From positions 352,001-416,000 of the forward strand of contig JBEPZY010000001.1 in NCBI GenBank assembly GCA_041640595.1: 64,000 bases of DNA, written 5' to 3'. The stretch is from Gemmatales bacterium. GTDB taxonomy: Bacteria; Planctomycetota; Planctomycetia; Gemmatales; HRBIN36. The notes beneath the pieces were generated by a model that saw only the letters and a list, made by a program, of their open reading frames with translations, was not told the DNA's origin and did no database searches. The translations under genes were made by a program, and so were the position numbers. Of the stretch, positions 547 to 25,700 are shown one piece after another; position 1 is the first letter of the stretch, and each line of letters starts with the position of its first letter.

Positions 547-1887
547 TCAGCGAGCCAGCCACTGAGCCAGGACATAAACAAAAGCTACGGCCAACAAGAT
601 GAGAGCCACAGCACAACCGGTTGATCCTGATTCAGGCTGGGCAGAATTAATGTTCGGCGCGGGCCTCGACGTTCGCGTCGGATTGCGAACGGGACCGGAT
701 ATGCTCGAGACGGCATGTGGCTGACCTGCCGATGGCTGCGGGGAACTGCTCACAGGAGTGGAGGGCGGCGACGACTGGGAAGAAGGTTGCGGGGATTGGT
801 TTTGGGTTGATGGATTAGTCGTCTGCGGAAGGTGATCAACCCACCACGGTTGAGTCCCGGTAGTTTGAACACTTTGCGTTCCTTTAGAATGCGATGGGGT
901 GGAGGGTGGTACTATGTGGTCGCCGTTCCAATCCGGTGAAACGATTATCGGGCTTTCCGGGTGAGCTGTCGGGGTTCGAACAGGAAGTTCGAAAATGCAG
1001 TCGGGAGCAGGTAACACAGCCGGACTCAGGTGGCAATACTCGGCCAGTCTTGCTGTCAGGTCCCGTACTTCGCCGGGTAGGCGTAACAAACGTTGCCAGA
1101 TAGGTGTCGCATTGGGGTTTTGAAAATCCTCGCGGCTAAAGATGAGCCGATCATCGTCATGGAATTCTTGCCAAAGCGACGGGTCATATCTCAAAGCCAG
1201 CAACGACAGATAAATGACCAGCGCGGAAAACGAATCAACGTTCGGACCGTAATAACCTTTAGCGAGCCGATTGGGGTGTTGGTAATTCGGATGCCCGACC
1301 TCATTTGGTGGATTGTTCCACAACGCAGGAATATAGATGCCGTCGTAGTCAACTAGGACAAGTTTGTCGTCTTCGGTTATTAGGATGTTGCCATGCTGCA
1401 GGTCGCCGTGGCCGATTTCGGCTTCAGCCAGTTGCTTGATCAGCTGTCGCCATTGTTCGATCCAGTTTTCCAGACGGTCCATCCGGCCGGTTACTAACGC
1501 GCTTCCAATAGCACTGTCCAGAGTTTGGCCATCTACCCACACCATTTTCACGATGGGATACCACTCGGAGTTGACGCAGATTCCTCGAGGCCGATAGCGG
1601 AACCGTACCAGACCGGTGACAGGATGCTGGCGAAGATGTTGCGAAAGCAGGCGATACCGTTCTTGGTGCGAAGTTACGGGGCGGATGAAACAACGCACAG
1701 CGTATTTCGCTTTTTTACGGGCACCGTTACTCTCCAGACAGAACACTACGGCAAAGTTGCCTGAACAAGTTATGGGCATTTCCCAGCGATCGAGAACAGG
1801 TTGACACTTGCGTAACTCGGAGTCTTGGAAGCATTGATTGCAGTCCTGCACAGCAAGTTGATAATCGGAGGGGGTGGGCCAAGGCAC
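547..1887 (-). CDS. Ser/Thr protein kinase-like protein (YegI/TerY-P triad type) with Pro/Ser/Thr/Gln-rich linker and C-terminal TM helix
   Basis: Motifs SGNFAVVF, YAVRCF, HGDLQHGNILI, LVDYDG and GHPNYQHP. GTG start with AAGGAG RBS. Hydrophobic C-terminus. Confidence 0.85.
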   Translation of the reverse strand: MPWPTPSDYQLAVQDCNQCFQDSELRKCQPVLDRWEMPITCSGNFAVVFCLESNGARKKAKYAVRCFIRPVTSHQERYRLLSQHLRQHPVTGLVRFRYRPRGICVNSEWYPIVKMVWVDGQTLDSAIGSALVTGRMDRLENWIEQWRQLIKQLAEAEIGHGDLQHGNILITEDDKLVLVDYDGIYIPALWNNPPNEVGHPNYQHPNRLAKGYYGPNVDSFSALVIYLSLLALRYDPSLWQEFHDDDRLIFSREDFQNPNATPIWQRLLRLPGEVRDLTARLAEYCHLSPAVLPAPDCIFELPVRTPTAHPESPIIVSPDWNGDHIVPPSTPSHSKGTQSVQTTGTQPWWVDHLPQTTNPSTQNQSPQPSSQSSPPSTPVSSSPQPSAGQPHAVSSISGPVRNPTRTSRPAPNINSAQPESGSTGCAVALILLAVAFVYVLAQWLAR

Positions 1888-1905
1888 GAGTTTTCTCCTT
1901 TTCAG

Positions 1906-3090
1906 TTATTTGACCGAATGGTCAACCGCATCTTGCAGCCAGCGCAATCGCGCCAAGGTTACGTCATCGTTTTTCATCCGTGACTGAGAACGCAAGTCGT
2001 TCAAAAATGTGACAATTTCTTGCCCAGCTTGGGGAAGAATGCTCGTGGCCGGGTGCTGATGACCGCGAACGCTTTGCAACTCCTGGACAATCCAGGCCGA
2101 CAGGGCATCCGTAGCCAACCAGATTTCATCTCCGGGCAAGAGTTGCCCATGCCCCAGATGGATGCACTGTTTTTTTAGGTAGCGAATATTGTAGTTGGCG
2201 TCGGTGCTCACCAGGGCAGGCGACACGCTGAAGTCCTTGGCCGTCATCCGGGGAATCATTTGCAACTGCTGTCCGCCGCGAAAGTGAAAAAGGCAATTAT
2301 CGCCGACGACTAACACCCGGTAACTGCAACCTGCGTGGCCGGTTTCCCCGGACAACACGAAATCGGCCACCAGGAGAGTTGCATGGGCACCCTGTTCGGC
2401 TTTGGCTTCGATAAACCAGGGAAGATTTTCCCAGTGCTGATGAGACCGCCACTTTTCTGCCTGCTGGTGGAGCCACTGTAAAAATTTGTGTCTGACCCGA
2501 CCGGAAACGCTTCCGGCAGTCAGGACGGTAAGGAGATCATTAGCAGCCTGGTAAGTGTCGGGACATTCCTGTGCATCCTGAGCCGCGTGGTAAGTGAGCA
2601 GTTGTGCCCACTCGGCGGAGGCATAGGAATCGCTGGCGCCATCACTGATGGCAATAGTAAGTCGGCCCGTGGATTTCCAGTTCCAGACCCGGCGATGGTC
2701 GGTACCGTAATTACTGCAATGATCCACGACGCAGTTGCAGGCATAGGCCCAGGCGTCCTCGCACTCATGAAGCTGATTGCCGAGCTTAGGCAACCGATAG
2801 ATTTCTAAATGCCAACCTTTCTTCAGCCATGTCCAAGCGGCAGGTCGTTCGGGCAATTTTTGCCGGTCACCTTGCTGGCCTTGTAACTGGGGTGAGCTAA
2901 CCGTCGCTTCAACAGACACCGAAACGGCAGGTCGTAATGGCGAGCCGGGATTTTCGGCTGGGGTAGGTCGAGTCCCCTTTTCGTCGCTCGGTAACCTGCT
3001 TTGTTGCAGCAGATTGATTTGCAGCGGATAGTATCGGGCGAATAGGGGACTATTGCGCCAGTGGAACATGCGTAGCCACGACCAGGGCAT
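1906..3090 (-). CDS. PP2C-like protein phosphatase (YegK/TerY-P triad type)
   Basis: Motifs ECEDA, AISDGAS, VGDNCLF, LATDALS and KNDDVT. Sits between the vWA and kinase genes. Start codon uncertain. Confidence 0.8.
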   Translation of the reverse strand: MPWSWLRMFHWRNSPLFARYYPLQINLLQQSRLPSDEKGTRPTPAENPGSPLRPAVSVSVEATVSSPQLQGQQGDRQKLPERPAAWTWLKKGWHLEIYRLPKLGNQLHECEDAWAYACNCVVDHCSNYGTDHRRVWNWKSTGRLTIAISDGASDSYASAEWAQLLTYHAAQDAQECPDTYQAANDLLTVLTAGSVSGRVRHKFLQWLHQQAEKWRSHQHWENLPWFIEAKAEQGAHATLLVADFVLSGETGHAGCSYRVLVVGDNCLFHFRGGQQLQMIPRMTAKDFSVSPALVSTDANYNIRYLKKQCIHLGHGQLLPGDEIWLATDALSAWIVQELQSVRGHQHPATSILPQAGQEIVTFLNDLRSQSRMKNDDVTLARLRWLQDAVDHSVK

Positions 3091-3107
3091 GTAGCGGCTT
3101 CCGGTGT

Positions 3108-3932
3108 TTAGCGAAGGTTTTTCGGGCGGGTGCCAATGTTCAGGAATCGAACGACTTCCGTCATGGGAGCGTTGAAGACGAAGCCGCGTGATCGATAAGT
3201 AACGGGCAGGTTTTCGTTTTGTGCCAGCGAGACAATATGCGGCGGCAAAATGCTGGACATGCGGAACAGTAAACGGGCATGATCGTCAGGCAGGTAAGCA
3301 TCATCTTCAGGATACAGGCAGGGCTGCGCTTTGGTTTCCGAGATGTGCAGGTTGAACAGCAAAACCTGGCCATCTTGGGTAGCCAGTTGGCGAATGGCGG
3401 TTGCTTCATCTTCCGGGTCGCCATCTGTTGGTTGCCCGTCTGTTATGTTGATCACAATAGGCGGGAAGGAGCGAGGATGTGCAGCGACCCAGTGGTTGAG
3501 AATCGCATACGCTCGCCGCAACGCTGCGCACATGGGAGTGCCATCATCGGCCACCGGCTCAACCCACACCGGGAATCGGCGTTCACGCTCCTGGTCCCGA
3601 CGTACTTCGACACGCAGAGGTGACGCAGCCAGTTCGGAAACGCGTACTAACTCCCTGCCACTCAACGCCCCGCCTAATGCCGAACCTACTATTCCCCCTT
3701 GAGCACCATAGCCGATGACGCCAATCTCGTAATAGTCGCGTACGCCTTCACGGGCATCTTTGGTGCAGCGAATGCACAAATCCATGAGCAGACGATTCAA
3801 AGCGTCGGCCAAAGCATCCGCTTTACGTCGGCCGCTTTCATCTCCTACTGGATCACTCATCGAGCCGGATTGGTCAATCAGGAACAGGAAGCAGGTTGGA
3901 TTGCTGCGGCTGATTTCTGCCTCGTAGGCCAT
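3108..3932 (-). CDS. vWA-domain protein (TerY/YegL-like)
   Basis: MIDAS motif DQSGSM, plus GTPM and NITDGQPTD. ATG at 3932 with AAGGAG RBS (ORF track extends to 3977). Confidence 0.85.
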   Translation of the reverse strand: MAYEAEISRSNPTCFLFLIDQSGSMSDPVGDESGRRKADALADALNRLLMDLCIRCTKDAREGVRDYYEIGVIGYGAQGGIVGSALGGALSGRELVRVSELAASPLRVEVRRDQERERRFPVWVEPVADDGTPMCAALRRAYAILNHWVAAHPRSFPPIVINITDGQPTDGDPEDEATAIRQLATQDGQVLLFNLHISETKAQPCLYPEDDAYLPDDHARLLFRMSSILPPHIVSLAQNENLPVTYRSRGFVFNAPMTEVVRFLNIGTRPKNLR

Positions 3933-4210
3933 TGTTGTACTCCTTGTTCTTGGTTTGCTTGAATTCCGCCTGTCCAACTACTTAAACGGAAGTCGTGAAT
4001 TGTTTGTGACACAAAAGTTGCCCGGAATCGTTTGGAGGAGACGATGCAGCGGGGATACGCCTGGGAGCCGTCGTTTACGGAACTGTCATCTTTTGGTCGC
4101 TTGCTGCGTTAAACAACTGGCACATTTCGCCGCGAAAGCTGCTTTCGTGCGAACAACGACTAAGCGGGATTTCTTCAGGCAAAGGAAAGCCAGTAAGGAA
4201 GGAGCATGCC

Positions 4211-4525
4211 ATGTACTTTCTGGTGGCTTACGACATTTCCGATCCGAAACGGTTACAGCGAGTCGCCCGCTTTATGGAACGGCGTGCTTTACGCTGCCAG
4301 AAGTCGGTCTTCATGTACCAGGGTGATGTCCAGGGGGTCAGTCGCCTTTTAAACGAGGTAGTCGAGTTGCTCGATACGCAGTCCGACATTGTGCAGGTCT
4401 GGCAACTGGCGCGAGGTCAGCCCTTGACCGGTTGGTATCGCGGTCGGCCCATGCCGCTGGACCCGGCTGGCTGTGTCGTAGCAGGTAACCGTGCCGTCCT
4501 GGTCGAAAAACCCCGACGGGGCTAA
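4211..4525 (+). CDS. cas2: CRISPR-associated endoribonuclease Cas2
   Basis: MYFLVAYDISDPKRLQRVARFM...CQKSVF signature, 104 aa, GGAG RBS. Confidence 0.92.
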   Translation: MYFLVAYDISDPKRLQRVARFMERRALRCQKSVFMYQGDVQGVSRLLNEVVELLDTQSDIVQVWQLARGQPLTGWYRGRPMPLDPAGCVVAGNRAVLVEKPRRG

Positions 4526-4903: not shown

Positions 4904-6556
4904 ATGCCAGCGATGAACGGCCAACCAGTGATTGAGGTGTTACCACGGGTTTATCGGAGTATTCCCGCTCCCCAGCGAGCTCTGGAAGAGCTGCAGGCAG
5001 AGCTTTACGCAGAGGTACGGGCGAAAGGTCGGCCCGTCGGCCAACTGGTAACTGCTCTGCTCGACCGCCGCAACTTGTACGCTGCCTGGCGATTTGTCCG
5101 GAATGCCGATGGTGCTGACACCCCGGGGCCGGATGGCCTGACTTGCAAGGACCTGGAACAATCGGCGGATTCCGGGGATGCTTTGCATCGCTTGTTCGAA
5201 CAGATTAGCCGGGACATACTTGATGGCCGTTATTGTCCGCAACCGCCGCGCTGGGTAGAGGTTCCCAAGCCTAATGGTGGTACTCGGCGTTTGGGCATCC
5301 TGACGGTGCGGGATCGCCTTGTGCATGCCGCTCTCAAAAACGTTCTCGAACCTATCCTGGAGCCGATTTTTACTTCCGCCAGCTTTGGTTTTCGACCGGG
5401 GAGAAGCACCACTGCTGCTTTGCTGGCGGCCATTAGATGGGCCGGCCCAGATGATCACGGCCGGCTCGTTTATCCCTATGCCATGCATCTGGATATCGAG
5501 GACTGTTTCGACACCATAGACCACCAGCATCTGTTCAGCGCCCTTTCCGAGCATGTTGCCGATGCTATCGTCCTGAAGCTTCTTCGCAAGCTGTTGGAAG
5601 CCTGTGCCCATTCGGTGCGTCGCTGGTTTCGCACTTACTACGTTGGGCTGTTGCAGGGAAGTGTGCTTTCGCCGCTTTTATGCAATTTGGCTCTGCACTC
5701 CCTCGACAAGGTTATGCTCAACATGCGCAGCGCCACCCAGAAGGGTATCGCTTATTTCCGTTATGCGGACGACTTACTCATCCTGGCTCGCAGCGAAGAG
5801 CTGGCAGTCAAGGCTTTTCGTTCTGCCAGCGCTTTTTTGCAGAGCATCGGACAGCGCTTCAAGGCCCGCAAACCGGAAATCGCTCTCCTCACTCGCGGTG
5901 TCGAATGGCTTGGCATGCGTATCTGCGTCACCGTCAATCCCTGGACCTCGAAACTTCAGCCCGGTTACTACATTCCAGATGCCTGTGTGGCCGAGATGGT
6001 CCAACGCCTTCAGGAAATGACCGTTCCTCCCAGTGCTAAGCTATCGGAGCAAACCTTCGACCTCCGCCAATGGATCATATCTATCAACCGGCAGTTGCAA
6101 GGCTGGCACAATGCCTATCAATACGCCGAGAATTTTTACCAGGTGGCCCGTACACTCGATGACGTTGTTCAGCAGCGGTTCGAAGAGCTTCTGATGGCTG
6201 TCACCGGCAAAGGGCGTCAGTACGTACGGGGCACTTATCGGGTTCGTTTGCCCCGCGGATTCACGACTTGGCAGGTAGATGGGGAGCAGTTGCTGGTGCT
6301 ATCGTCCAAGCCGCCGCATTTCCCCAATCCGAAACTGCTCTACCAACGACCCGCCTGGATGCGTGCTCCGCAGAACGCCATCCTACCGCAAGCCAACGCT
6401 GGCCAGACGCCATTCTGGTTGAACAATTTGCCTCAGCAGGCTCTGCCTCAGCCGCAAGCCCAACCGCCGAATGCCTTTGCTAACCCTCAGGATACCACAA
6501 ATCAACCTGGGCCCCCCACAGGAACTAATCCGGCCACCGGTCAGCACAATCCCTAA
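4904..6556 (+). CDS. CRISPR-associated reverse transcriptase (group II intron-like RT/maturase, not fused to Cas1)
   Basis: RT0 (NLYAAW..TPGPDG), PKPNGGTRRLGI, SFGFRPGRS, LDIEDCFDTIDH, LQGSVLSPLL, catalytic YADD, WLG and thumb-like GW. No HNH domain. Pro/Gln/Asn-rich tail. Located between cas2 and cas1. Confidence 0.92.
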   Translation: MPAMNGQPVIEVLPRVYRSIPAPQRALEELQAELYAEVRAKGRPVGQLVTALLDRRNLYAAWRFVRNADGADTPGPDGLTCKDLEQSADSGDALHRLFEQISRDILDGRYCPQPPRWVEVPKPNGGTRRLGILTVRDRLVHAALKNVLEPILEPIFTSASFGFRPGRSTTAALLAAIRWAGPDDHGRLVYPYAMHLDIEDCFDTIDHQHLFSALSEHVADAIVLKLLRKLLEACAHSVRRWFRTYYVGLLQGSVLSPLLCNLALHSLDKVMLNMRSATQKGIAYFRYADDLLILARSEELAVKAFRSASAFLQSIGQRFKARKPEIALLTRGVEWLGMRICVTVNPWTSKLQPGYYIPDACVAEMVQRLQEMTVPPSAKLSEQTFDLRQWIISINRQLQGWHNAYQYAENFYQVARTLDDVVQQRFEELLMAVTGKGRQYVRGTYRVRLPRGFTTWQVDGEQLLVLSSKPPHFPNPKLLYQRPAWMRAPQNAILPQANAGQTPFWLNNLPQQALPQPQAQPPNAFANPQDTTNQPGPPTGTNPATGQHNP

Positions 6557-6588: not shown

Positions 6589-7617
6589 ATGGCGAAGCAC
6601 ATCACCTACGTGCAAACCCCGGTTGCCCATGTGGTCGGACCAGGCAAACTTAGGATTATCAACGGCCGCCTAGCTTTCACCACGGGCAACGGTACTCCCC
6701 TGCGCCTTGACCTCAACACTTTGCGTGCCATTTACTGCTACGGCAACGTCGGGGCAACTGATGAGGCGATACAACTGCTTTTTCAGCACGGCATTGACGT
6801 CGTTTGGCTTTCTCCAGCAGGTAACGAGTGTCGCGGACGACTCGTCCGCTACGATTCCAGCTCCGCTGCTTTGCGGATGATACAGCATCGCGTTTTGGCC
6901 CATCCACCCGCTCGACTGGAACTGGCCCGCTTCATCGTCCAGGCCAAAATTGAATCCCAAATGAAGGCCGCCAGGCATTATCAGCGCCAGGGGCTTTCTA
7001 TTGCCGGCAAATTCATCGAACAACTTCAGTCCGTTTTGGCTATGCTGCCCAGCGTGGCCTCTCTGGACGCCCTTCGTGGCTTTGAAGGACAGGCCTCCGC
7101 TCTCTGGTACGAGCTTTTCTCCCAGCTTCTTGTTCCCCCGTGGACCTTCCCTGGCCGCAACCGCAGACCACCTACAGACCCAGTCAATGCCTTGCTTAGC
7201 CTCGGCTACACCTTGCTCTTCCGCCGCACAGAGGCTAGAACCGAAGCTCACGGCTTGGAAGTCGCTCTGGGAGCTTTGCATGAATTCCGACACGGCCGAC
7301 CTTCCCTGGCCTGTGACTTTGTGGAGCCGTTTCGCGTCCCCGCTGTCGACCGATGGGTCCTGACTATTTGCAATCAACACCGCCTGCAGCCCCAACATTT
7401 CCAAAATACCCCGGAAGGTATCCGTTTGACCCCTGACATGTTTCCTCGTATCATTGCTTCGTGGGAACAACATTTCGTATCTCACGGTTTTGAACGCTCT
7501 TTGGAAAACTGCCTTCAGCAATGGATAAGCATCCTACGGTCCTGGGCGAACCGCTTGCCTGACCCCCTTTTGCCACCCCAGGACAGTGCACCCCCAGGCA
7601 ACACCGTAACTTCCTGA
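6589..7617 (+). CDS. cas1: CRISPR-associated integrase Cas1
   Basis: Motifs LRGFEGQAS, RRPPTDPVNALLSLGY, GALHE and LACDFVEPFR. GGAGG RBS. Adjacent to the array. Confidence 0.95.
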   Translation: MAKHITYVQTPVAHVVGPGKLRIINGRLAFTTGNGTPLRLDLNTLRAIYCYGNVGATDEAIQLLFQHGIDVVWLSPAGNECRGRLVRYDSSSAALRMIQHRVLAHPPARLELARFIVQAKIESQMKAARHYQRQGLSIAGKFIEQLQSVLAMLPSVASLDALRGFEGQASALWYELFSQLLVPPWTFPGRNRRPPTDPVNALLSLGYTLLFRRTEARTEAHGLEVALGALHEFRHGRPSLACDFVEPFRVPAVDRWVLTICNQHRLQPQHFQNTPEGIRLTPDMFPRIIASWEQHFVSHGFERSLENCLQQWISILRSWANRLPDPLLPPQDSAPPGNTVTS

Positions 7618-7748
7618 ACGCAAAACACTTACGTGCAAAAATGTCCTTACTGACAAAGCATCTCAACAAGCCTTTTCGTCGGGATGTCATACCGCTAGGC
7701 AGTTTCCGTTCTTATGTTCCGGCCCATTCGAGCGTTGCGCCCGCCAGA
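7618..7748 (+). promoter_or_regulatory. CRISPR leader
   Basis: Non-coding 131 bp between the cas1 stop and the first repeat. The decayed repeats are at the opposite end of the array. Confidence 0.75.
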
Positions 7749-10700
7749 CTCGCAACTTAGACCCCAACCAATAGGGGATTGAAACGATAGCGGCTACTAC
7801 CATTGTTCCTCCCTCCTTGGGCTCGCAACTTAGACCCCAACCAATAGGGGATTGAAACGCCGGGCCCTGGCCTTCCGGCTGGAGACCAGGGCCAGCTCGC
7901 AACTTAGACCCCAACCAATAGGGGATTGAAACAGTTCTGATGAGAAAGTTATACCCGCCGGCGTAGATGCTCGCAACTTAGACCCCAACCAATAGGGGAT
8001 TGAAACTGCATCTGTTGGCAAAGACTATCAATACCTTTAGAAACTCGCAACTTAGACCCCAACCAATAGGGGATTGAAACCGCCAGGGTTCCGGCCTGTA
8101 TCCGCGCTGCCGCCCCAGCCTCGCAACTTAGACCCCAACCAATAGGGGATTGAAACACTCGCAAGACGGGTATTGGCCTGTATCCGCGCTGCCGCCTCGC
8201 AACTTAGACCCCAACCAATAGGGGATTGAAACGACACTGCTGCCCCAGCAATAATCATGTCCAACCACCTCGCAACTTAGACCCCAACCAATAGGGGATT
8301 GAAACGTCGAAACTACTTCTTGCCCCGCCGCCCCCGCCCGGCTCGCAACTTAGACCCCAACCAATAGGGGATTGAAACCACTGCTGCCCCAGCAATAATC
8401 ATGTCCAACCACCTCCTCGCAACTTAGACCCCAACCAATAGGGGATTGAAACAATCATGTCCAACCACCTCCTTGGGCCCGTTGATAAACTCGCAACTTA
8501 GACCCCAACCAATAGGGGATTGAAACGGTGCGAGGCAGCTACTTCTTGTTTTTGCTACGCCCGCCTCGCAACTTAGACCCCAACCAATAGGGGATTGAAA
8601 CTGAACTTGCACCCTAAGCTTTTCCAGCTCCGCCAGACTCGCAACTTAGACCCCAACCAATAGGGGATTGAAACCATTGCGGCTCCGGCTATCATACTCC
8701 CCTCCTTTGGGCTCGCAACTTAGACCCCAACCAATAGGGGATTGAAACCTCCGGCTATCATACTCCCCTCCTTTGGGCCGAATAACTCGCAACTTAGACC
8801 CCAACCAATAGGGGATTGAAACAATCCGACAATGATGGATACTAGGCAGATTGCGGCTCTCGCAACTTAGACCCCAACCAATAGGGGATTGAAACCACAC
8901 AAACAACAACATCTTGGATAACCTTTGGTAACTCGCAACTTAGACCCCAACCAATAGGGGATTGAAACACCAACCAAACCTCCGATGCCGCCACGCATTC
9001 CCGGCTCGCAACTTAGACCCCAACCAATAGGGGATTGAAACAGCAGACGACCCCTGGCCGGACTCGATGAGTTGCATGACTCGCAACTTAGACCCCAACC
9101 AATAGGGGATTGAAACAGTATCCAACCAAGAATTACACTGACCAGTGCCAAACTCGCAACTTAGACCCCAACCAATAGGGGATTGAAACAATGACCATCT
9201 AACACTTTACCTTCATAAAGACAACCTCGCAACTTAGACCCCAACCAATAGGGGATTGAAACACCGTAGACGCCGAGGATGAGAGGCCTAAGCATTCAAT
9301 CTCGCAACTTAGACCCCAACCAATAGGGGATTGAAACCAAAGACGAGGCCTGCGGCTCCTCACTGGTCCACCCCTCGCAACTTAGACCCCAACCAATAGG
9401 GGATTGAAACACATTTCGTCAGAATCTGTTTGCCCCAACATTAACGCCTCGCAACTTAGACCCCAACCAATAGGGGATTGAAACGGCCAGGAGGAATCCG
9501 ACTAGCACAGATACTAAGGACTCGCAACTTAGACCCCAACCAATAGGGGATTGAAACACTGCCGCGCCGACAACAATCATAATTCTCCCCTCCTCTCGCA
9601 ACTTAGACCCCAACCAATAGGGGATTGAAACCAACGAATTTTGCAAAATTGGTAACGCAGTTTCCAAACTCGCAACTTAGACCCCAACCAATAGGGGATT
9701 GAAACGCGGGCGATGCGGGCCAGTATGAACCCGAGGAGGACCTCGCAACTTAGACCCCAACCAATAGGGGATTGAAACCCCGAGGAGGACAGAAACGAGA
9801 GAAATGCCAGCGCCCTCGCAACTTAGACCCCAACCAATAGGGGATTGAAACGTCTTCTTGGCCCGGGGCTCCCGCCGGGCCCGGCGGGCCTCGCAACTTA
9901 GACCCCAACCAATAGGGGATTGAAACATCATGTCCTCTCCTCCTGCGTCTGGGGCCCGTTGATCTCGCAACTTAGACCCCAACCAATAGGGGATTGAAAC
10001 CGGGCGATGGCCCTGTCGACGGAACTTACGGATCTGCACTCGCAACTTAGACCCCAACCAATAGGGGATTGAAACAGTGGTGCCCGCGCTTCCGCCGCAG
10101 AAGCGCGCCGACCTCGCAACTTAGACCCCAACCAATAGGGGATTGAAACGGGCACTCCAATTGAAGTGGTGCCCGCGCTTCCGCCGCCTCGCAACTTAGA
10201 CCCCAACCAATAGGGGATTGAAACCTTCCCGGCGTCCGCCGCCTGCGGCTCCCCACTGGGCCTCGCAACTTAGACCCCAACCAATAGGGGATTGAAACTT
10301 GCCCGCCGCGGGCCTCGTCAAAGACGAGGCCGCACTCGCAACTTAGACCCCAACCAATAGGGGATTGAAACATCGTTCATCAAACCCATCAACCAAATCC
10401 AACTCACAACTCGCAACTTAGACCCCAACCAATAGGGGATTGAAACAAAAGTACTGCGCCACGCGCTCCATATGGCTGCCTCCTCGCAACTTAGACCCCA
10501 ACCAATAGGGGATTGAAACATACCAGCTCCAACAATAATCATGTCCTCTCCTCCTCGCAACTTAGACCCCAACCAATAGGGGATTGAAACACCAGCTCCA
10601 ACAATAATCATGTCCTCTCCTCCTGCGCTCGCAACTTAGACCCCAACCAATAGGGGATTGAAACTTGCGGGTCTTGCCCCGCCGCCGCTCCCGCCGAGAC

Positions 10701-13700
10701 CTCGCAACTTAGACCCCAACCAATAGGGGATTGAAACCCCGATCAAGAGAGAGACCAAAGCAACCCCCGCCCCTCTCGCAACTTAGACCCCAACCAATAG
10801 GGGATTGAAACACGGCGCTATTTCTTGCGGGTCTTGCCCCGCCGCCGCTCTCGCAACTTAGACCCCAACCAATAGGGGATTGAAACGCCCGGGCCGCCGG
10901 GAGACCCGGATGCGGGCCAGGACACTCGCAACTTAGACCCCAACCAATAGGGGATTGAAACCTTACCTGCCTGTGGCGTGACGCTAAGTCTTGCGGCCTC
11001 GCAACTTAGACCCCAACCAATAGGGGATTGAAACCCGAGAACGACGGAAACGAGCGCTATTGTTGACCCGGCCTCGCAACTTAGACCCCAACCAATAGGG
11101 GATTGAAACCCCGGCTATCATACTCACCCTCCTGCGTTGCGTCTTTCTCGCAACTTAGACCCCAACCAATAGGGGATTGAAACTGAGCCGGCGGTACAAT
11201 TCCCGCCGGTCCTCGGTGGTCTCGCAACTTAGACCCCAACCAATAGGGGATTGAAACCCGGCTCCCCACTGGGCACTCCAACTGAAGTGGTGCCCGCCTC
11301 GCAACTTAGACCCCAACCAATAGGGGATTGAAACTGCTCCCAACACCATTTTTCTCCCCTCCATTTGGGCTCGCAACTTAGACCCCAACCAATAGGGGAT
11401 TGAAACTGTCCCGCCCGGGCCGCCGCCCCCGGCTGCTCCGGGCCTCGCAACTTAGACCCCAACCAATAGGGGATTGAAACCCATGTGGCGTGGCGGGTGT
11501 TAAGACTTGCGGCGGGTCTCGCAACTTAGACCCCAACCAATAGGGGATTGAAACGACGAGGCCGCAGTCAGGGCAGCGGCTGGCCTCCTCGGCTCGCAAC
11601 TTAGACCCCAACCAATAGGGGATTGAAACGGCGTCGACCGGGCGACCACCCGATCGGAATTTGTGGCTCGCAACTTAGACCCCAACCAATAGGGGATTGA
11701 AACGCGGTCAGATCGAAAAGAAAGGACAAAATTATAATCTCGCAACTTAGACCCCAACCAATAGGGGATTGAAACCCCCCCCGCGTTTACCGGCCTTCCT
11801 TGGCCGGTTGCCCCTCGCAACTTAGACCCCAACCAATAGGGGATTGAAACGCCAGTATGAATCCGACCAGGACCGAAATGATAGAAACTCGCAACTTAGA
11901 CCCCAACCAATAGGGGATTGAAACGACCAGGACCGAAATGATAGAAATGGAAGCTCCCAACAACTCGCAACTTAGACCCCAACCAATAGGGGATTGAAAC
12001 CCAACAACATTTTTTTCCTCCACATTTGGTTTTGGCCTCGCAACTTAGACCCCAACCAATAGGGGATTGAAACGATAGAAATGGAAGCTCCCAACAACAT
12101 TTTTTCCTCCCTCGCAACTTAGACCCCAACCAATAGGGGATTGAAACGCCGCTACAATGCGGCAAGGGCGTGGCCGTGCCACTCCTCGCAACTTAGACCC
12201 CAACCAATAGGGGATTGAAACGCGGGACAAGCGCAAGTAGCCGTCGTCACGATCTTTCTCGCAACTTAGACCCCAACCAATAGGGGATTGAAACAATGGC
12301 CGCTCCAGCAATAATCATATTCTCCCTCCATCTCGCAACTTAGACCCCAACCAATAGGGGATTGAAACAGCAATAATCATATTCTCCCTCCATTGGGCCA
12401 GTTGACTCGCAACTTAGACCCCAACCAATAGGGGATTGAAACACAGCGCAAGGCTGGATACTCAACGAAGCCGATGCACTCGCAACTTAGACCCCAACCA
12501 ATAGGGGATTGAAACACCCGGTTACGCCGAGTGAGCCGGCGATACAACTCCCCTCGCAACTTAGACCCCAACCAATAGGGGATTGAAACGGCCTGATGGG
12601 GTTTCCAGTCGCCATCCTGCCCGTGCCCTCGCAACTTAGACCCCAACCAATAGGGGATTGAAACAACTACCACGGCGGCCTGCCTCTGACCCCTAACCCA
12701 GCTCGCAACTTAGACCCCAACCAATAGGGGATTGAAACACGCCGAGTGAGCCGGCGATACAACTCCCGGCGGTCCTCGCAACTTAGACCCCAACCAATAG
12801 GGGATTGAAACTAGGCAGGCCTGATGGGGTTTCCAGTCGCCATCCTGCCTCGCAACTTAGACCCCAACCAATAGGGGATTGAAACAATAGACCTTGCGAT
12901 TAAGTCTGCGGAAGTTCTCATGCTCGCAACTTAGACCCCAACCAATAGGGGATTGAAACTTCTCGCCCGGCTCCTGGGCCTCCGGAGCCGGGCACTCGCA
13001 ACTTAGACCCCAACCAATAGGGGATTGAAACAACAGGTGACGGAACCCTAAACTTCTTCACCTTCGACTCGCAACTTAGACCCCAACCAATAGGGGATTG
13101 AAACACCTTCGACACTTTAACCTCAATGTTACCATCCAGGCTCGCAACTTAGACCCCAACCAATAGGGGATTGAAACTTAGCCTTCCGCAGGACTTCGTC
13201 CGGAACACGCAATCTCGCAACTTAGACCCCAACCAATAGGGGATTGAAACCGTCCCCCCACTACCCCGATGTAGTGGGGGCGGACACCTCGCAACTTAGA
13301 CCCCAACCAATAGGGGATTGAAACTCAAACAGGTGACGGAACCCTAAACTTCTTCACCTTCTCGCAACTTAGACCCCAACCAATAGGGGATTGAAACTGG
13401 CCATACATGCAAGGCGGCCACCTATGCCAGCCAACCTCGCAACTTAGACCCCAACCAATAGGGGATTGAAACCCGGAGCGGACCCGGGCTAGGATAAACC
13501 CAATCAGAACTCGCAACTTAGACCCCAACCAATAGGGGATTGAAACCCGCCGCCGCCCCCGGCTCTTGCCCCGGTCCCGCCGCCTCGCAACTTAGACCCC
13601 AACCAATAGGGGATTGAAACTCCCGGCGGCTCACTCGGAGGTTATCCGGGGCCTCCCTCTCGCAACTTAGACCCCAACCAATAGGGGATTGAAACCGCGG

Positions 13701-16700
13701 GGGCACGCTCGGTTCCTCCGAGTGAGCCGCCGGTCTCGCAACTTAGACCCCAACCAATAGGGGATTGAAACCGACCTTCCTTGGTCGGTTGCCCGCTGCG
13801 GCCCTCGTCCTCGCAACTTAGACCCCAACCAATAGGGGATTGAAACGCAGTCTGGGCAGCGGGTGGTCTCTTCCCTCAACGGCCCTCGCAACTTAGACCC
13901 CAACCAATAGGGGATTGAAACACCCGGGCAAGGATAAATCCGGTTAGCACTGAGATCACTCGCAACTTAGACCCCAACCAATAGGGGATTGAAACTCTTA
14001 CCCTCCATTTTTTGGTCCTTGGGGCCCGTTGACTCGCAACTTAGACCCCAACCAATAGGGGATTGAAACTCCACCGACGCGACTTCTGCACCTTTAAGCC
14101 CTCCTCCTCGCAACTTAGACCCCAACCAATAGGGGATTGAAACTGCTGCTCCGCCTGCTGCTGCTGCTGCTGCTCCCTCGCAACTTAGACCCCAACCAAT
14201 AGGGGATTGAAACAACTTCGATGTGACCACCATCCAGAAGAATCCTAGCACTCGCAACTTAGACCCCAACCAATAGGGGATTGAAACCGCAAAGCACATG
14301 AGATGTATTTGAAAAATCCTAAATCTCGCAACTTAGACCCCAACCAATAGGGGATTGAAACACTGCTGACCCTAGCAGCATCTTTCTCCTCCCTCATCTC
14401 GCAACTTAGACCCCAACCAATAGGGGATTGAAACTGTCCCGCCCGGTCCGCCGCCGGGCGAGGCGGGCCAGCTCGCAACTTAGACCCCAACCAATAGGGG
14501 ATTGAAACGCATCTTTCTCCTCCCTCATGGTCCTTGGGGCCCGTTCTCGCAACTTAGACCCCAACCAATAGGGGATTGAAACAGCATCTTTCTCCTCCCT
14601 CATGGTCCTTGGGGCCCGTTCTCGCAACTTAGACCCCAACCAATAGGGGATTGAAACATCACCCAATTACAAATAGCCGCCGGGATTCTTTCCCCTCGCA
14701 ACTTAGACCCCAACCAATAGGGGATTGAAACGACTTGCCCTGCTGAGGCTCGTCGAAGACGAGCCGGCACTCGCAACTTAGACCCCAACCAATAGGGGAT
14801 TGAAACGAGGTACTCGCAGGACGGGTATTGACCTGTATCCGCGCTCGCAACTTAGACCCCAACCAATAGGGGATTGAAACAGCGGGTGGCTTCCTCCGTC
14901 AACGGCCACCCGCAACGCTCGCAACTTAGACCCCAACCAATAGGGGATTGAAACGGAACGCACGAAACGCACGCAAACCATCCTCTAAACCTCGCAACTT
15001 AGACCCCAACCAATAGGGGATTGAAACAACGCCAGGAAACCTGCCCGTGCGGTGGGCCGCCCTCCTCGCAACTTAGACCCCAACCAATAGGGGATTGAAA
15101 CCGCTATTTCTTGCGGGTCTTGCGCCCCCGCCCCCGGCCTCGCAACTTAGACCCCAACCAATAGGGGATTGAAACAGTAAGATCGCTCTCGAAAGTCAAT
15201 CGCGATGTCCGCCTCGCAACTTAGACCCCAACCAATAGGGGATTGAAACGACAGTAACTCCATCGTTCCGGCAAACTACTTGGTACTCGCAACTTAGACC
15301 CCAACCAATAGGGGATTGAAACGATTCTTGCTCCGCCGACCCCGCCGACCCCGCCGGAGCTCGCAACTTAGACCCCAACCAATAGGGGATTGAAACACTC
15401 TTCGATGTCCTGTACGGGCCTGATGGCACCACCTCGCAACTTAGACCCCAACCAATAGGGGATTGAAACCACCCCTTCTCGCCCGGCTCCTGGGCCTACG
15501 GCAGCCCTCGCAACTTAGACCCCAACCAATAGGGGATTGAAACCGCGATGTCCGCCTCTTCTGGGTTTTCGTCATCCCAACTCGCAACTTAGACCCCAAC
15601 CAATAGGGGATTGAAACGGAATTTATCCTTTTCATTTTCCATAACCTCCTCAAACTCGCAACTTAGACCCCAACCAATAGGGGATTGAAACCTATTAAGA
15701 TGAGGTCGTAATATTACGTTTACGTGCCTCGCAACTTAGACCCCAACCAATAGGGGATTGAAACTTTTTTGAGTAAGATCGCTCTCGAAAGTCAATCGCG
15801 CTCGCAACTTAGACCCCAACCAATAGGGGATTGAAACCTTCGTCCCTTTTCGGCCCATCCTTCTCGCCCGGCTCCTCGCAACTTAGACCCCAACCAATAG
15901 GGGATTGAAACTCAGGAGCCGGGCAAAGTCCGACCCCCGCTACCCCGCTCGCAACTTAGACCCCAACCAATAGGGGATTGAAACGTTCCTTCCTAACATT
16001 ATCTTCTGGTTCGTGTTTTTCGCTCGCAACTTAGACCCCAACCAATAGGGGATTGAAACTTTTATAACTGCTACACGGACCACGGCCTTCCCTCCTTCTC
16101 GCAACTTAGACCCCAACCAATAGGGGATTGAAACCCTGTGGCGGGCGGCTACGACTTCTTGCGCTTCTTCTTCTCGCAACTTAGACCCCAACCAATAGGG
16201 GATTGAAACCACTACCATTCCTACACCTCCTTCCTTTGGTTTTGGCTCGCAACTTAGACCCCAACCAATAGGGGATTGAAACCCCGGGAGATTGGTCTTT
16301 GCCGCCGGGCCCGGGCCAGCCTCGCAACTTAGACCCCAACCAATAGGGGAATTGAAACGCCCATAACATTTCTCTTTCCTCCTGGTCTTTGGGGCCCTCG
16401 CAACTTAGACCCCAACCAATAGGGGATTGAAACGACCACGCCCCCGCCCGGGCCACCGGGAGACCCGGGCCTCGCAACTTAGACCCCAACCAATAGGGGA
16501 TTGAAACCATTTCTCTTTCCTCCTGGTCTTTGGGGCCCGAATACTCGCAACTTAGACCCCAACCAATAGGGGATTGAAACTGACAGCTGCCCATAACATT
16601 TCTCTTTCCTCCTGGTCCTCGCAACTTAGACCCCAACCAATAGGGGATTGAAACGGCCCGGGCGGGGGCGTGGTCTTTGGGGCCCGAATAAACTCGCAAC

Positions 16701-19700
16701 TTAGACCCCAACCAATAGGGGATTGAAACAACATTTCTCTTTCCTCCTGGTCTTTGGGGCCCGAATCTCGCAACTTAGACCCCAACCAATAGGGGATTGA
16801 AACGTAGTACTTTGCGTAGTGCATAATATCCCTCCTATAGCCTCGCAACTTAGACCCCAACCAATAGGGGATTGAAACAACGATAACTTCATAAACGCCG
16901 GATTTTTCAACAAACTCGCAACTTAGACCCCAACCAATAGGGGATTGAAACAGAACACAAACGTTTCAAACTTTGATTTAACCCAGTCTCGCAACTTAGA
17001 CCCCAACCAATAGGGGATTGAAACGACAGACAGCTGCTCCTAGCATGTCCATTTCCTCCGCTCGCAACTTAGACCCCAACCAATAGGGGATTGAAACACC
17101 TGGCGGGTGCGAGGCTAAGTCTTGCGCTTTTTTCTCGCAACTTAGACCCCAACCAATAGGGGATTGAAACTCCGTCTTTGGGGCCCGTTGATAAGACCCC
17201 TCCCTACTCGCAACTTAGACCCCAACCAATAGGGGATTGAAACGCTCTTGTCCCGCTCCCGGCGGGTCCGGGCCCGGCGCTCGCAACTTAGACCCCAACC
17301 AATAGGGGATTGAAACATAATTCCCGGCGGTCCTCGACATCGACCTGCCGGACCTCGCAACTTAGACCCCAACCAATAGGGGATTGAAACGCTGTGGGGC
17401 TAAGGCGGAAACCCCACAATCCTGCCTCGCAACTTAGACCCCAACCAATAGGGGATTGAAACGACGCGGGCAAGCAGGAATCCAATTAGGACGGAGGCCT
17501 CGCAACTTAGACCCCAACCAATAGGGGATTGAAACTCCTGTTACTTCTGAAAGAGTTTCCAGTCGACAAAACCTCGCAACTTAGACCCCAACCAATAGGG
17601 GATTGAAACCGCTTGGACCTGTTCTTGCTGAGGTTGATCAGCTTGCTCGCAACTTAGACCCCAACCAATAGGGGATTGAAACACTACCATTTCCCTTTTT
17701 TAGGAGTTGAAGCTGACCAAACTCGCAACTTAGACCCCAACCAATAGGGGATTGAAACTATAATACCCTCTATAAGGCTTGGCATGGGCCTTAATCCTCG
17801 CAACTTAGACCCCAACCAATAGGGGATTGAAACTCGGCGGGCCGCTTTTCTTTGGAGGGAACGCCGGTCCTCGCAACTTAGACCCCAACCAATAGGGGAT
17901 TGAAACAGAAATGGCCGCTCCGGCTATCATATTTCCTCCCTCCCTCGCAACTTAGACCCCAACCAATAGGGGATTGAAACACTATGTCCCTTCCGTGATA
18001 GAGGTACTCGCAGGACGGCTCGCAACTTAGACCCCAACCAATAGGGGATTGAAACGGCTAAGGCGGAAACCCCACAATCCTGCCTCTGGGCCTCGCAACT
18101 TAGACCCCAACCAATAGGGGATTGAAACCCTCGTCCGTCAACGGCCACCCGCAACGGGGGCACTATGCTCGCAACTTAGACCCCAACCAATAGGGGATTG
18201 AAACGGCCAATGCCGGGTAGATTGTATCTAACGCCACGGGCCTCGCAACTTAGACCCCAACCAATAGGGGATTGAAACACAGGTACACTTTATCAAACCC
18301 GTACTCCTTGCCTTTCTCGCAACTTAGACCCCAACCAATAGGGGATTGAAACGACGCCGTCTGCTACGCGGGGGCTACCGGGCTCCGGCCTCGCAACTTA
18401 GACCCCAACCAATAGGGGATTGAAACACTGGACAACCGGCTCGAACTTCAAGCCAAGACTGGCCTCGCAACTTAGACCCCAACCAATAGGGGATTGAAAC
18501 GTCCGTCAACGGCCACCCGCAACGGGGGCATGCCCGGCTCGCAACTTAGACCCCAACCAATAGGGGATTGAAACGACGTGGCCGCCGGACCCGTCGGATA
18601 TGGCCGCCGTCCTCGCAACTTAGACCCCAACCAATAGGGGATTGAAACGCAATCGCCTTGGGCACCACGGGACGTGGCCGCCGGACTCGCAACTTAGACC
18701 CCAACCAATAGGGGATTGAAACTCCATTTTAATGCCCACGCGGCAATCGCCTTGGGCACCTCGCAACTTAGACCCCAACCAATAGGGGATTGAAACACAA
18801 CGGAAACAATTGCTATGACTGATCTGGCTATCTCGCAACTTAGACCCCAACCAATAGGGGATTGAAACGTTATCCAGATCAACAACCTCAACCTCACAAC
18901 TTCCCTCGCAACTTAGACCCCAACCAATAGGGGATTGAAACTAATGTGTAGTCTCTCATCAGGTTGAATGCCACATTTCTCGCAACTTAGACCCCAACCA
19001 ATAGGGGATTGAAACGTGAAGCTGCGGCTTGTCATATTTGACCTCCTTTCTAACTCGCAACTTAGACCCCAACCAATAGGGGATTGAAACACCGAAACGA
19101 TTGCTACTGCTGCTCCTATAACCATAACTCGCAACTTAGACCCCAACCAATAGGGGATTGAAACGCTGCTCCTATAACCATAATTTCCTCCTGCGTCTTT
19201 CTCGCAACTTAGACCCCAACCAATAGGGGATTGAAACCCTGCCATCGGGCCATCCAGGCCATTGCGGCCCATGCCTCGCAACTTAGACCCCAACCAATAG
19301 GGGATTGAAACATATGAAACCGCATGGTAGAGTTGTTCATTTGCAGGCTCGCAACTTAGACCCCAACCAATAGGGGATTGAAACAATTACTTCAGCATAT
19401 CGCTCAATATATCGGACCATGCTCGCAACTTAGACCCCAACCAATAGGGGATTGAAACTCATATCCTCCCTCCATTATGGTTTGGGCCCGTTGACTCGCA
19501 ACTTAGACCCCAACCAATAGGGGATTGAAACAGCATAACATCTCATTAAGTGAACGCTCTTCCTAACCTCGCAACTTAGACCCCAACCAATAGGGGATTG
19601 AAACGCAAGGGCGTGGCCGTGCCACTCAGCCGGGTTCATACTCGCAACTTAGACCCCAACCAATAGGGGATTGAAACGCAGTCTGGGCAGCGGGTGGCTT

Positions 19701-22700: not shown

Positions 22701-25700
22701 AGACCTCGTCCGGGATTTTCAGACTAAAGCCCCGAGCCTCGCAACTTAGACCCCAACCAATAGGGGATTGAAACTTCAACCCCGTTATCCAGGATAAGCT
22801 TTGCGAACCGGCTCGCAACTTAGACCCCAACCAATAGGGGATTGAAACCAATAAGAAAAGCGACTAACGTGTTTACCCAGAACTGTCTCGCAACTTAGAC
22901 CCCAACCAATAGGGGATTGAAACTATCTTTACGCATCTTTCCATATTTGTCCTCCCCTTTCTCGCAACTTAGACCCCAACCAATAGGGGATTGAAACAAT
23001 GCGGTGAGTGTGAAACTCGCAAAAACCCTAGAACTCGCAACTTAGACCCCAACCAATAGGGGATTGAAACTCTGGCAACTGGTCAGTTGGTCTCGGTTGG
23101 CTACATCTCGCAACTTAGACCCCAACCAATAGGGGATTGAAACATGATTGTAGCGACACGGACCATGGCTATCCTCCTTCTCGCAACTTAGACCCCAACC
23201 AATAGGGGATTGAAACACACGGATTTGCGGCAGGCTAATACTTAGCCTGCCTCTCGCAACTTAGACCCCAACCAATAGGGGATTGAAACAACCATACCTA
23301 AAAACTCACAAAACAGGTAGAACGGCTCGCAACTTAGACCCCAACCAATAGGGGATTGAAACGGCAACGCGATAGACATTTCACTCTGCAGATCCCAATC
23401 TCGCAACTTAGACCCCAACCAATAGGGGATTGAAACACCCCCACTACCCCGATGTAGCGGAGGGCGGACAACACTCGCAACTTAGACCCCAACCAATAGG
23501 GGATTGAAACGCCCGGCTCCTGGGCCTACGGCAGCCGGGCAAAGTCCCTCGCAACTTAGACCCCAACCAATAGGGGATTGAAACGGATTTGCGGCAGGCT
23601 AATACTTAGCCTGCCTCAGACTCGCAACTTAGACCCCAACCAATAGGGGATTGAAACGGCCCGGCGGTCGAAGGAGGTCTAACGACACTATATCTCGCAA
23701 CTTAGACCCCAACCAATAGGGGATTGAAACTATAGCCGTGGCTCGGCAGGGCAGGAGCGCTGGGAACTCGCAACTTAGACCCCAACCAATAGGGGATTGA
23801 AACTTAACCCAGTCAATAACGGTGCTAACGATTTCGGACTCGCAACTTAGACCCCAACCAATAGGGGATTGAAACAATGTCGAACAGATATTTCAAACTT
23901 CTCACCTTTAACCTCGCAACTTAGACCCCAACCAATAGGGGATTGAAACTCCTAGCGCATCGTTCCATGCCTGTCTCCCTGTTTGGCCTCGCAACTTAGA
24001 CCCCAACCAATAGGGGATTGAAACGAATTCCCGGTCAACATAAAGGCCATTGACCTCAATCTCTCGCAACTTAGACCCCAACCAATAGGGGATTGAAACA
24101 GCTGCGTTGGCTGTGTAGCCGCATGGCCACATGGCCTCGCAACTTAGACCCCAACCAATAGGGGATTGAAACGTCACGTCCTCTCCCTGTGGCGGGTGAC
24201 GACGGCTAACTCGCAACTTAGACCCCAACCAATAGGGGATTGAAACAATCCGATAAGAACGGATACAATAGCTATGGCCGACCTCGCAACTTAGACCCCA
24301 ACCAATAGGGGATTGAAACGAAAGAGTTTCAGCCAGTCGATAAAACTTTCATCAGTCTCGCAACTTAGACCCCAACCAATAGGGGATTGAAACTGCAGTC
24401 CTGAGAATGCACACAGCACATAGATCGTCCTCGCAACTTAGACCCCAACCAATAGGGGATTGAAACTGTGCTTTCATCCAATCAAGCACGAACTGACGCC
24501 ATCTCGCAACTTAGACCCCAACCAATAGGGGATTGAAACATCAAAAGAGTAATGTCTATTCAAAAGCCAACATACCCTCGCAACTTAGACCCCAACCAAT
24601 AGGGGATTGAAACCCAACAACGTTTTCAACCGTAGCAACGCGGGCGGTGCTCGCAACTTAGACCCCAACCAATAGGGGATTGAAACACTGCCGACCCTAA
24701 CATCTTCCATCTCCATTATGGTCTCGCAACTTAGACCCCAACCAATAGGGGATTGAAACGCCAGTCGATAAAACTTTCATCAGTAACTGGCCTACGAGCT
24801 CGCAACTTAGACCCCAACCAATAGGGGATTGAAACATACCATTGTTGAAATCAACCTGTTGACCTTGCTCCTCTCGCAACTTAGACCCCAACCAATAGGG
24901 GATTGAAACTCTTCCATCTCCATTATGGTCTTTGGGCCCGTTGATACTCGCAACTTAGACCCCAACCAATAGGGGATTGAAACCTTCATTACGATGGTGT
25001 GCTGCACGCCTGTTAACCTCGCAACTTAGACCCCAACCAATAGGGGATTGAAACACAGTTACTTTCCAGGACTCAACAGGGTTGTCCAACTCGCAACTTA
25101 GACCCCAACCAATAGGGGATTGAAACGGTTATTCTCTTGCGATTACGCCCCAGTGCGTAATCGCTCGCAACTTAGACCCCAACCAATAGGGGATTGAAAC
25201 AGTATCGCATGGCATTCCTCCTGTTCTTTTACCCTCTCGCAACTTAGACCCCAACCAATAGGGGATTGAAACTCCGAGCTTTTGGAACTTTCACCTCCAC
25301 GGTGCCATCTCGCAACTTAGACCCCAACCAATAGGGGATTGAAACCAATAGCTATGGCCGACCCTCCTAACATCTCTTTCCCTCGCAACTTAGACCCCAA
25401 CCAATAGGGGATTGAAACCTTGAACTTTACGTAACTTCTCAGGATGTGTAACTTTCTCGCAACTTAGACCCCAACCAATAGGGGATTGAAACCTGGCTGC
25501 TTCTTTAAGGGCTTCGATGCAAAAGCCCCTCGCAACTTAGACCCCAACCAATAGGGGATTGAAACGACTTGGATTTGGTTCTTTCTAGGCATAGTTTTAC
25601 CCTCGCAACTTAGACCCCAACCAATAGGGGATTGAAACCTACCACCAGGACGAGGAGGGAAAGCAGCACAAATACTCGCAACTTAGACCCCAACCAATAG

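Follow-up and report, generated by a model that had tools for sequence, protein, structure and literature searches.

A stretch of 64,000 nucleotides (nt) from a Gemmatales bacterium (assembly GCA_041640595.1, contig JBEPZY010000001.1, positions 352,001 to 416,000 of the forward strand), referred to here as the window, carries a CRISPR array of 246 spacers next to an operon of cas2, a reverse transcriptase (RT) gene and cas1. Twelve of these spacers, taken from different variants of one small targeted gene, all end inside a single 7-nt stretch of a conserved motif, and sampling of the target almost ceases beyond this edge. We consider it about as likely as not that an abundant short messenger RNA (mRNA), from a mobile element unmatched in the searched collections, has its 5' end at the edge and was captured as run-off complementary DNA (cDNA).

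A common edge among spacer ends

The initial annotation of the window, made from the sequence alone, described twelve spacers from different target variants that share one end point, and only two that read through it. Both statements were borne out when the spacers were aligned on the motif: all twelve end inside the 7-nt stretch, and only the spacers beginning at 17171 and 20566 cross the boundary. On the + strand, the 12 boundary spacers end within ...GGG(G)CCCGTT(GATAAA) or ...GG(G)CC(C)GAAT(AAA). Start positions are given below in the target sense, which is the reverse complement of the + strand, and are counted from the first G of GGGCCC (the anchor); the first bases of the boundary spacers lie 9, 7, 7, 6, 6, 5, 5, 5, 5, 4, 3 and 3 nt before it. 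Spacers are named by their first position in the window.

8453..8489, + strand, boundary spacer, start at -9 in the target sense
8749..8785, + strand, boundary spacer of the GAATAA class, start at -6
9927..9963, + strand, boundary spacer, start at -6
12369..12405, + strand, boundary spacer with a diverged motif (GGGCCAGTTGA), start at -5
13996..14032, + strand, boundary spacer, start at -5
14509..14545, + strand, boundary spacer, start at -3
14583..14620, + strand, boundary spacer of the same variant as 14509 with the other end 1 nt longer, start at -3
16508..16543, + strand, boundary spacer of the GAATA class, start at -5
16655..16692, + strand, boundary spacer, odd in having the peptide tail region in sense orientation as its 5' half, start at -7
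16730..16766, + strand, boundary spacer, start at -4
19459..19494, + strand, boundary spacer, start at -5
24910..24946, + strand, boundary spacer, start at -7
17171..17206, + strand, read-through spacer, start at -20, with the target going on upstream of the edge
20566..20602, + strand, read-through spacer, start at -36, with an upstream in-frame stop codon followed by GGAGGGGTC

The spacer ends were compared with a uniform null, as had been proposed in that annotation. Uniform placement of the 14 spacers covering the anchor base was simulated 200,000 times, and the observed 12 of 14 within the 7-nt stretch had a probability of P = 5e-6 (analytic bound 4e-6). When each target variant was represented by one spacer only, 9 of 11 fell in the stretch (P = 2.8e-4). 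The 12 boundary spacers represent 9 target sequence variants located in separate blocks of the array. Three of them, 16508, 16730 and 16655, are of the same variant and end 5, 4 and 7 nt before the anchor, respectively, so the scatter of the ends arises in capture and not from differences between variants. The sequence GGAGGGGTC upstream of the edge is common to read-through spacers 17171 and 20566, which come from two different variants. The edge is therefore not a conservation limit, since this upstream sequence has been kept in two variants though it was hardly sampled.

Start positions downstream of the motif were placed by hand using exact overlaps of same-variant spacers (overlap contigs). 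The density of spacer starts is 1.7 per nt in the 7-nt stretch, compared with 0.89 per nt in the next 18 nt downstream (binomial P = 0.066), and it falls to 0.07 per nt upstream of the edge, where 2 starts are found in 27 nt (P = 1.6e-7), a drop of more than 10-fold. The feature is thus an edge more than a sharp peak, as heaping at the very edge is at most about 2-fold and is non-significant alone. The boundary had been placed 25-30 nt upstream of the peptide ATG; it does lie upstream of this codon, with a wider actual spread of 24-39 nt. A Shine-Dalgarno (SD) motif is found between the edge and the ATG, and in spacer 20566 an in-frame stop codon is found approximately 10 nt before the motif. 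The position of the edge fits a 5' untranslated region (5' UTR).

The targeted gene and the search for its source

Based on a hand count of translations of the reverse complements, approximately 79 of the 246 spacers fall in one peptide gene of approximately 270 nt, which is represented by many sequence variants, and nearly all of these spacers are antisense. They divide into 37 from the 5' UTR and start codon, 20 from the N-terminal hydrophobic helix, 19 from the Arg/Gly/Pro-rich tail and 3 that are wholly within the 3' region. Hand placement relative to the ATG located 34 spacer starts from -36 to -8 and 21 from -7 to +54, with fewer in the tail. Sampling increases 5'-ward and then stops, and it thins toward the 3' end of the gene. 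A second edge was observed there: 14 spacers overlap the stop codon or 3' region, with far ends from +2 to approximately +40 and none beyond, and the stop codon is overlapped by 12 spacers (hand count). This second edge is located approximately 40 nt past the stop codon, just after a GC hairpin, and approximately 270 nt from the first. Two such edges are what a discrete transcript would give.

The segment from the SD motif to the ATG is present in 38 of the 246 spacers as the reverse complement versus 2 on the + strand, and in 6.1 +/- 2.4 spacers in shuffles. Homology among spacers was determined by local alignment (score >= 26), which gave 225 pairs compared with 3 in the shuffle control; 209 of the pairs have the same orientation and 16 the opposite. 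Clustering with k = 10 was rejected, as it joined 145 spacers via chance GC-rich words, and local alignment was used instead. Overall, approximately 96% of surviving spacers are antisense, and the sense-oriented exceptions number about five (13621, 17391, 18056, 19901 and possibly 16655). The + strands of the spacers at 13621-13658, 17391-17425, 18056-18091 and 19901-19937 code for protein motifs of their antisense homologues. A rod-like self-complementary genome was considered as the source of the opposite-orientation pairs, and was rejected in favour of plain sense spacers for 13621, 18056 and 19901 because of these encoded motifs.

Further genes of the same element are targeted too; one of them, encoding a small zinc-ribbon protein, is the source of approximately 23 spacers. 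Spacers of the same variant adjoin each other in the array, with seven in a row at 16283-16766 and further groups at 8233-8489, 11851-12110 and 14362-14620, suggesting bursts of several acquisitions in one encounter. Six near-perfect hairpin spacers with 10-bp stems (13251-13287, 23437-23473, 12960-12994, 22627-22662, 23217-23252 and 23585-23620) stem from structured non-coding parts of the target; structured regions are described as hot spots in the type III-A system of Streptococcus thermophilus (PMC8860593).

Boundary spacer 16655 is composed of two parts. At its 5' end, 21 nt reverse-complement neighbour 16434 exactly and correspond to the sense strand of the region that codes for the tail. 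At its 3' end, 20 nt match the antisense 5' UTR of neighbours 16508 and 16730 without a difference, and the 5 nt TGGTC are common to both parts at the join. Judging from this arrangement, 16655 would be either a template-switch chimera or the product of an inverted copy of the motif located after the gene in the target. Spacer 8081 (8081-8119) contains a 25-nt block common to 8157, 20935 and 21304 followed by differing sequence, and this remainder is similar to spacers 19752 and 19975 when these are reverse-complemented. Spacer 8081 may represent a second junction or a recombinant spacer.

The target was sought in several collections. In the host genome, the motif pattern (<= 2 mismatches) was found only in the array, plus one 2-mismatch site on contig C3, and a blastn-short search with all 246 spacers gave no match longer than 27 nt outside the array. 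The target was not found among GenBank phages when 8,000 of the approximately 18,200 array bases were queried (window 16283-24282); seven Klebsiella phage records had one common 34-nt match of 88% (E=0.7), which was taken as chance. Pattern scans of IMG/VR returned 1, 7, 0, 0 and 3 loci, in which re-blasting all spacers matched the seed word only, a scan of JGI metagenomes returned 33 loci that each matched the 20-nt seed alone, and a scan of GTDB genome contigs returned a single Paracoccaceae locus with only a seed match. Among the relatives, comprising 267 genomes of the order and 401 sampled from the phylum (both sets including G000), there was no match outside G000. A MAFFT alignment of 16 spacer-translation fragments of 8-12 amino acids (aa) did not yield the right tiling order.

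DNA sequencing run X1, labelled as a hot springs metagenome, contained 11% of the sampled words; no RNA run with them was found. Both array flanks were present in this run on long contigs (depth of approximately 60), the array itself was present as fragments of approximately 90 nt, and nothing in the run was assignable to the target. At window 12941-12965 / 20696-20721, a low-depth (2.5) contig showed the same repeat with differing spacer letters, suggesting that a related strain with another array is present in the same community. The absence of the target agrees with the untraceable spacers reported for RT-linked arrays (PMC5513706).

The adaptation module and its relation to known systems

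The array belongs to an RT-associated CRISPR adaptation module, in which an RT gene adjoins cas1 and is accompanied by cas2 and the array. The features of this region are as follows.

4211..4525, + strand, cas2 (Pfam CRISPR_Cas2, E=2.9e-12; NCBIfam TIGR01573, E=1.3e-7, above cut-off)
4904..6556, + strand, stand-alone reverse transcriptase of 550 aa with no Cas1 fusion (Pfam RVT_1, E=1.6e-33)
6589..7617, + strand, cas1 (Pfam Cas_Cas1, E=6e-74; NCBIfam TIGR00287, E=4.1e-57)
7618..7748, + strand, presumed leader between cas1 and the first repeat, assigned by position only
7749..25934, + strand, CRISPR array, parsed into 247 repeats (37 nt) and 246 spacers (33-40 nt)

The three genes are all on the + strand and form an adaptation operon in which the RT gene is between cas2 and cas1. 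The top NCBIfam match of the RT is the group II intron RT/maturase family TIGR04416 (E=1.4e-71), with a score of 241.5 bits that is below the 300-bit cut-off. The repeats end in ATTGAAAC on the + strand, an ending which we take to be a mark of the transcribed strand, and the + strand was therefore taken as the CRISPR RNA (crRNA) strand. A 1-nt insertion (GGGGAATTGAAAC) is found in the repeat at 16321-16358, and the remaining 246 repeats are identical, which is unusually uniform for an array of such length. The spacers have approximately 57% GC (43% AT) content overall, and toward the old end of the array the two members of an identical pair of 36-nt spacers (24614-24649 and 25712-25747) are separated by approximately 1.1 kb.

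The array flanks contain no effector cas genes. Upstream of cas2, at 547-3977 on the - strand, there are a protein-kinase-like gene, an open reading frame without a family match and a weak vWA-domain gene. Elsewhere in the genome, 14 RAMP-domain matches were found in at least 3 clusters, indicating that type III effectors are present. The nearest of these on the same contig is more than 330 kb away, and none of the 14 RAMP matches adjoins the array (Cas10 and Cas6 were not searched for).

RT-Cas1 systems take spacers from RNA (PMC10828431). The RT-Cas1-Cas2 system of Fusicatenibacter saccharivorans, used in Record-seq, acquires spacers from abundant RNAs and near start and stop codons, with an antisense preference and no protospacer adjacent motif (Schmidt et al. 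2018, as summarised in PMC10828431 and PMC13501316). The array described here is similar in being enriched beside the start and stop codons (38 of 246 spacers from SD to ATG, and the 12 stop-codon spacers) and in preferring antisense spacers (38 versus 2), although a natural array cannot separate selection from integration bias. In F. saccharivorans the RT is part of a Cas6-RT-Cas1 fusion, which was examined in E. coli; its spacers have a median length of 39 nt, and spacers as well as hot spots are strongly biased toward AT (PMC10828431, PMC13501316). The RT studied here is a separate gene, and the spacers come from a natural array, have approximately 57% GC and show no AT-rich end signature.

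In Marinomonas mediterranea MMB-1, a group-II-intron-like RT is linked to Cas1-Cas2 and type III (Silas 2016; Mohr 2024, PMC11014452). The RT of this module, likewise accompanied by cas1 and cas2, may be of the same lineage, going by the profile match below cut-off, and may also work with type III effectors. MMB-1 acquires spacers from highly transcribed RNA, and these are described as uniform along genes and in either orientation, with non-coded A-rich nucleotides at the junctions and with cDNA initiation at 3'-proximal sites of short RNA fragments (PMC11014452). In contrast, sampling here is 5'-weighted and antisense, and the terminal A runs that could be checked by same-variant overlap are templated in 3 of 3 cases (11851, 11925 and 19091). 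The type III-D RT-Cas1 system of Vibrio vulnificus shares the antisense bias. It is reported to have AT-rich positions at either end of its spacers and to sample coding sequences with no preference for their 5' or 3' side (PMC6821258), neither of which is seen here.

In the type III-A system of S. thermophilus, spacers are likewise enriched near start codons, and the enrichment is also seen just downstream of promoters and in 5' UTRs with structure (PMC8860593). That system has no RT, takes DNA and integrates it independently of orientation (PMC8860593). This array differs in the strong antisense bias of its surviving spacers and in having an RT, encoded within the adaptation operon. Like the RT-linked arrays of Silas 2017 (PMC5513706), in which the RT adjoining cas1 is described as an early arrangement, this array has spacers without a match in the public collections searched; unlike in those arrays, the spacers are redundant enough for parts of the target to be pieced together from the array itself.

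Interpretation of the edge

If the edge is the 5' end of a captured mRNA, this mRNA of approximately 270 nt would encode a small protein that begins with a hydrophobic helix and has a tail rich in Arg, Gly and Pro, and the Cas2-RT-Cas1 module would sample it through cDNA. Reverse transcription would proceed to the 5' end of the RNA and fall off, leaving no cDNA, and hence no spacer, from further upstream. During integration by Cas1-Cas2, the 3'-OH of each prespacer strand attacks the repeat. The 3' end of a spacer on the + strand would then be the 3'-OH joined to the downstream repeat, that is, the cDNA 3' end at which reverse transcription stopped. cDNA cover accumulating toward the RNA 5' end would produce the rise in sampling in that direction, and the 7-nt scatter may come from ragged RNA ends, from stops a few bases short, or from trimming. 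Run-off at the RNA 5' end would in this way give lined-up spacer ends, nothing upstream of them and cover rising 5'-ward. What was observed is the edge, which recurs from variant to variant, together with the gradient, the 3'-side edge, the antisense orientation and the neighbouring RT; from these we infer an RNA end at the boundary, and capture of RNA or cDNA instead of DNA. The initial annotation had proposed a discrete transcript start or processing site, and of this proposal the boundary proved real, recurring in at least 9 variants at 24-39 nt before the ATG and having a counterpart in the second edge.

Several observations weigh against capture of an RNA 5' end. The excess of starts at the edge over the downstream plateau is too weak to show preferential capture of the terminus itself. 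Eight of the 12 boundary spacers begin with T in the target sense, and T at a bacterial transcription start is unusual. Non-templated A-tailing of cDNA ends, an idea taken from MMB-1 (PMC11014452), could explain an initial T; it was dropped, since the 3 checkable A runs are all templated. No convincing -10 element was found upstream in read-through spacers 17171 and 20566. It is possible that the AT-rich motif serves as the -10 box, and the 12 spacers would then include DNA that is not transcribed. There is no pile-up at the 3' end of the transcript, unlike the 3'-proximal cDNA initiation described for the M. mediterranea RT-Cas1 (PMC11014452), and the approximately 23 spacers of the zinc-ribbon gene show no comparable 5' enrichment. 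As the target was not recovered, no promoter, transcription start or RNA end could be mapped. In addition, the type III-A system, which is RT-less, gives DNA-derived hot spots just downstream of promoters (PMC8860593). The earlier suggestion that the pattern supports RNA as the substrate was accordingly not established, because such hot spots, and likewise type III selection for antisense spacers inside transcripts, would each place an edge near a transcription start.

Capture of DNA where transcription initiation opens access, with the antisense bias coming from later selection of crRNAs, is the main rival explanation, and although we consider it unlikely, it is the strongest of the alternatives. 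The edge would still mark a transcription start, and the pattern would be silent on RNA as the substrate. Spacers of the S. thermophilus type III-A system lie just downstream of the promoter, the peak moves when the promoter is inverted, and enrichment is seen near start codons and 5' UTR attenuators (PMC8860593); in agreement with this, 38 of the 246 spacers here cover the segment from SD to ATG, and starts at the edge itself are only weakly in excess over the adjoining plateau (P = 0.066). However, a DNA hot spot should straddle the start site, yet only 2 starts are found in the 27 nt upstream versus 12 in the next 7, and an edge as sharp as this counts to some degree against capture of DNA. 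The presence of an RT gene inside the adaptation operon also does not favour it, and selection alone would be needed to produce approximately 96% antisense spacers. Selection could also be proposed as the only cause, with acquisition everywhere and survival only of those spacers whose crRNAs pair with the transcript along their whole length and so gave immunity. Type III interference depends on target RNA, an old natural array has been shaped by selection, and an interference-dependent strand bias is documented (PMC8860593). Such selection would not explain the 5'-ward gradient, and it predicts a soft edge with survivors extending 5-15 nt past the start, whereas only one start was found between -20 and -10. 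Pairing of the crRNA 3' end, which meets the 5' side of the target, is the most dispensable and mismatch-tolerant part in type III systems, and the sharpness of the edge therefore argues against pure selection, which we regard as improbable.

A local sequence preference, in which the integrase or a trimming nuclease favours a lone AT-rich patch in a GC-rich region regardless of any RNA or DNA end, is in our view no more probable than pure selection. AT-rich positions are found at the spacer ends of the V. vulnificus RT-Cas1 system (PMC6821258) and AT-richness drives the hot spots of Record-seq (PMC13501316). If 16655 does come from a true inverted copy of the motif, a spacer would end at the motif in the opposite genomic orientation as well. 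A preference for AT-rich ends had also been raised in the initial annotation, but it does not extend to the other 234 spacers, whose last 4 nt on the + strand have 39.3% AT compared with 42.8% when 4-mers are drawn from these spacers at random (a proportion of 0.99 of the simulations gave an AT content at least as high as that observed). Terminal AAA on the + strand is in weak excess in these spacers (8 of 234 versus 1.4% in the interior, approximately P = 0.02 by Poisson arithmetic), and a mild preference for ending after A runs is possible. AT preference is nevertheless improbable as the cause of the edge, because a bias of approximately 2-fold cannot give a step of more than 10-fold. The observed ends (GTT, GTTGA, GTTGAT, GTTGATA and GTTGATAAA) have no common cut context, and other AT-rich patches in the same 5' UTRs show no comparable edge. 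Least probable of all, and only slightly below the two preceding explanations, is a discontinuity in the target DNA that supplies a free end from which prespacers are measured; this could be a nick made in replication, the end of a genome or of a packaged molecule, or a junction formed by recombination or by a cassette. Free DNA ends are acquisition hot spots in other CRISPR types, and GTTGATA on the + strand resembles CTTGATA, which we take to be the motif nicked in pC194 and phiX174-type origins. In spacer 12665, a similar upstream context leads into a different downstream sequence. On the other hand, the TTGATA core is missing from the GAATAAA class of the motif, the predicted nick does not coincide exactly with the end of any spacer, and the upstream sequence is conserved and continuous in two variants, each with a read-through spacer. 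The gradient here spans less than 100 nt in one orientation, unlike the kilobase-scale effects on both strands at free DNA ends.

Returning to capture of run-off cDNA, a more specific form of this explanation can be put forward tentatively, as a possibility we think doubtful, though less so than DNA capture. The array might be a natural transcriptional record, in which a stand-alone RT with Cas1-Cas2 integrates the 3' ends of run-off ('strong-stop') cDNA directly. Its spacers would then map the 5' end of a hyper-abundant viral mRNA of approximately 270 nt to within a few bases, in at least 9 successive virus variants. Spacer 16655 would be a template-switch cDNA, with sense tail joined to antisense 5' UTR through the 5-nt microhomology, that ran off at the same terminus, and it would provide direct sequence evidence of reverse transcription in a wild array.

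In our analysis, the pattern appears to be an instance, in a natural array, of the sampling bias already known from laboratory studies of RT-Cas1 systems. Should the edge prove to be no more than a DNA hot spot near a promoter, or to result from selection, it would be an ordinary consequence of type III biology. If cDNA run-off is correct, the mechanism of this stand-alone-RT module would not be that of the M. mediterranea model, with sampling that is antisense and weighted to the 5' end instead of even and in both orientations, and natural RT-linked arrays could be read as maps of the transcript ends of their invaders, even of invaders that have never been sequenced. The array also demonstrates that an untraceable RT-linked spacer repertoire can be highly redundant, with approximately one third of its 246 spacers on one small gene, and this redundancy is a handle for recovering the invader from the source hot-spring community.

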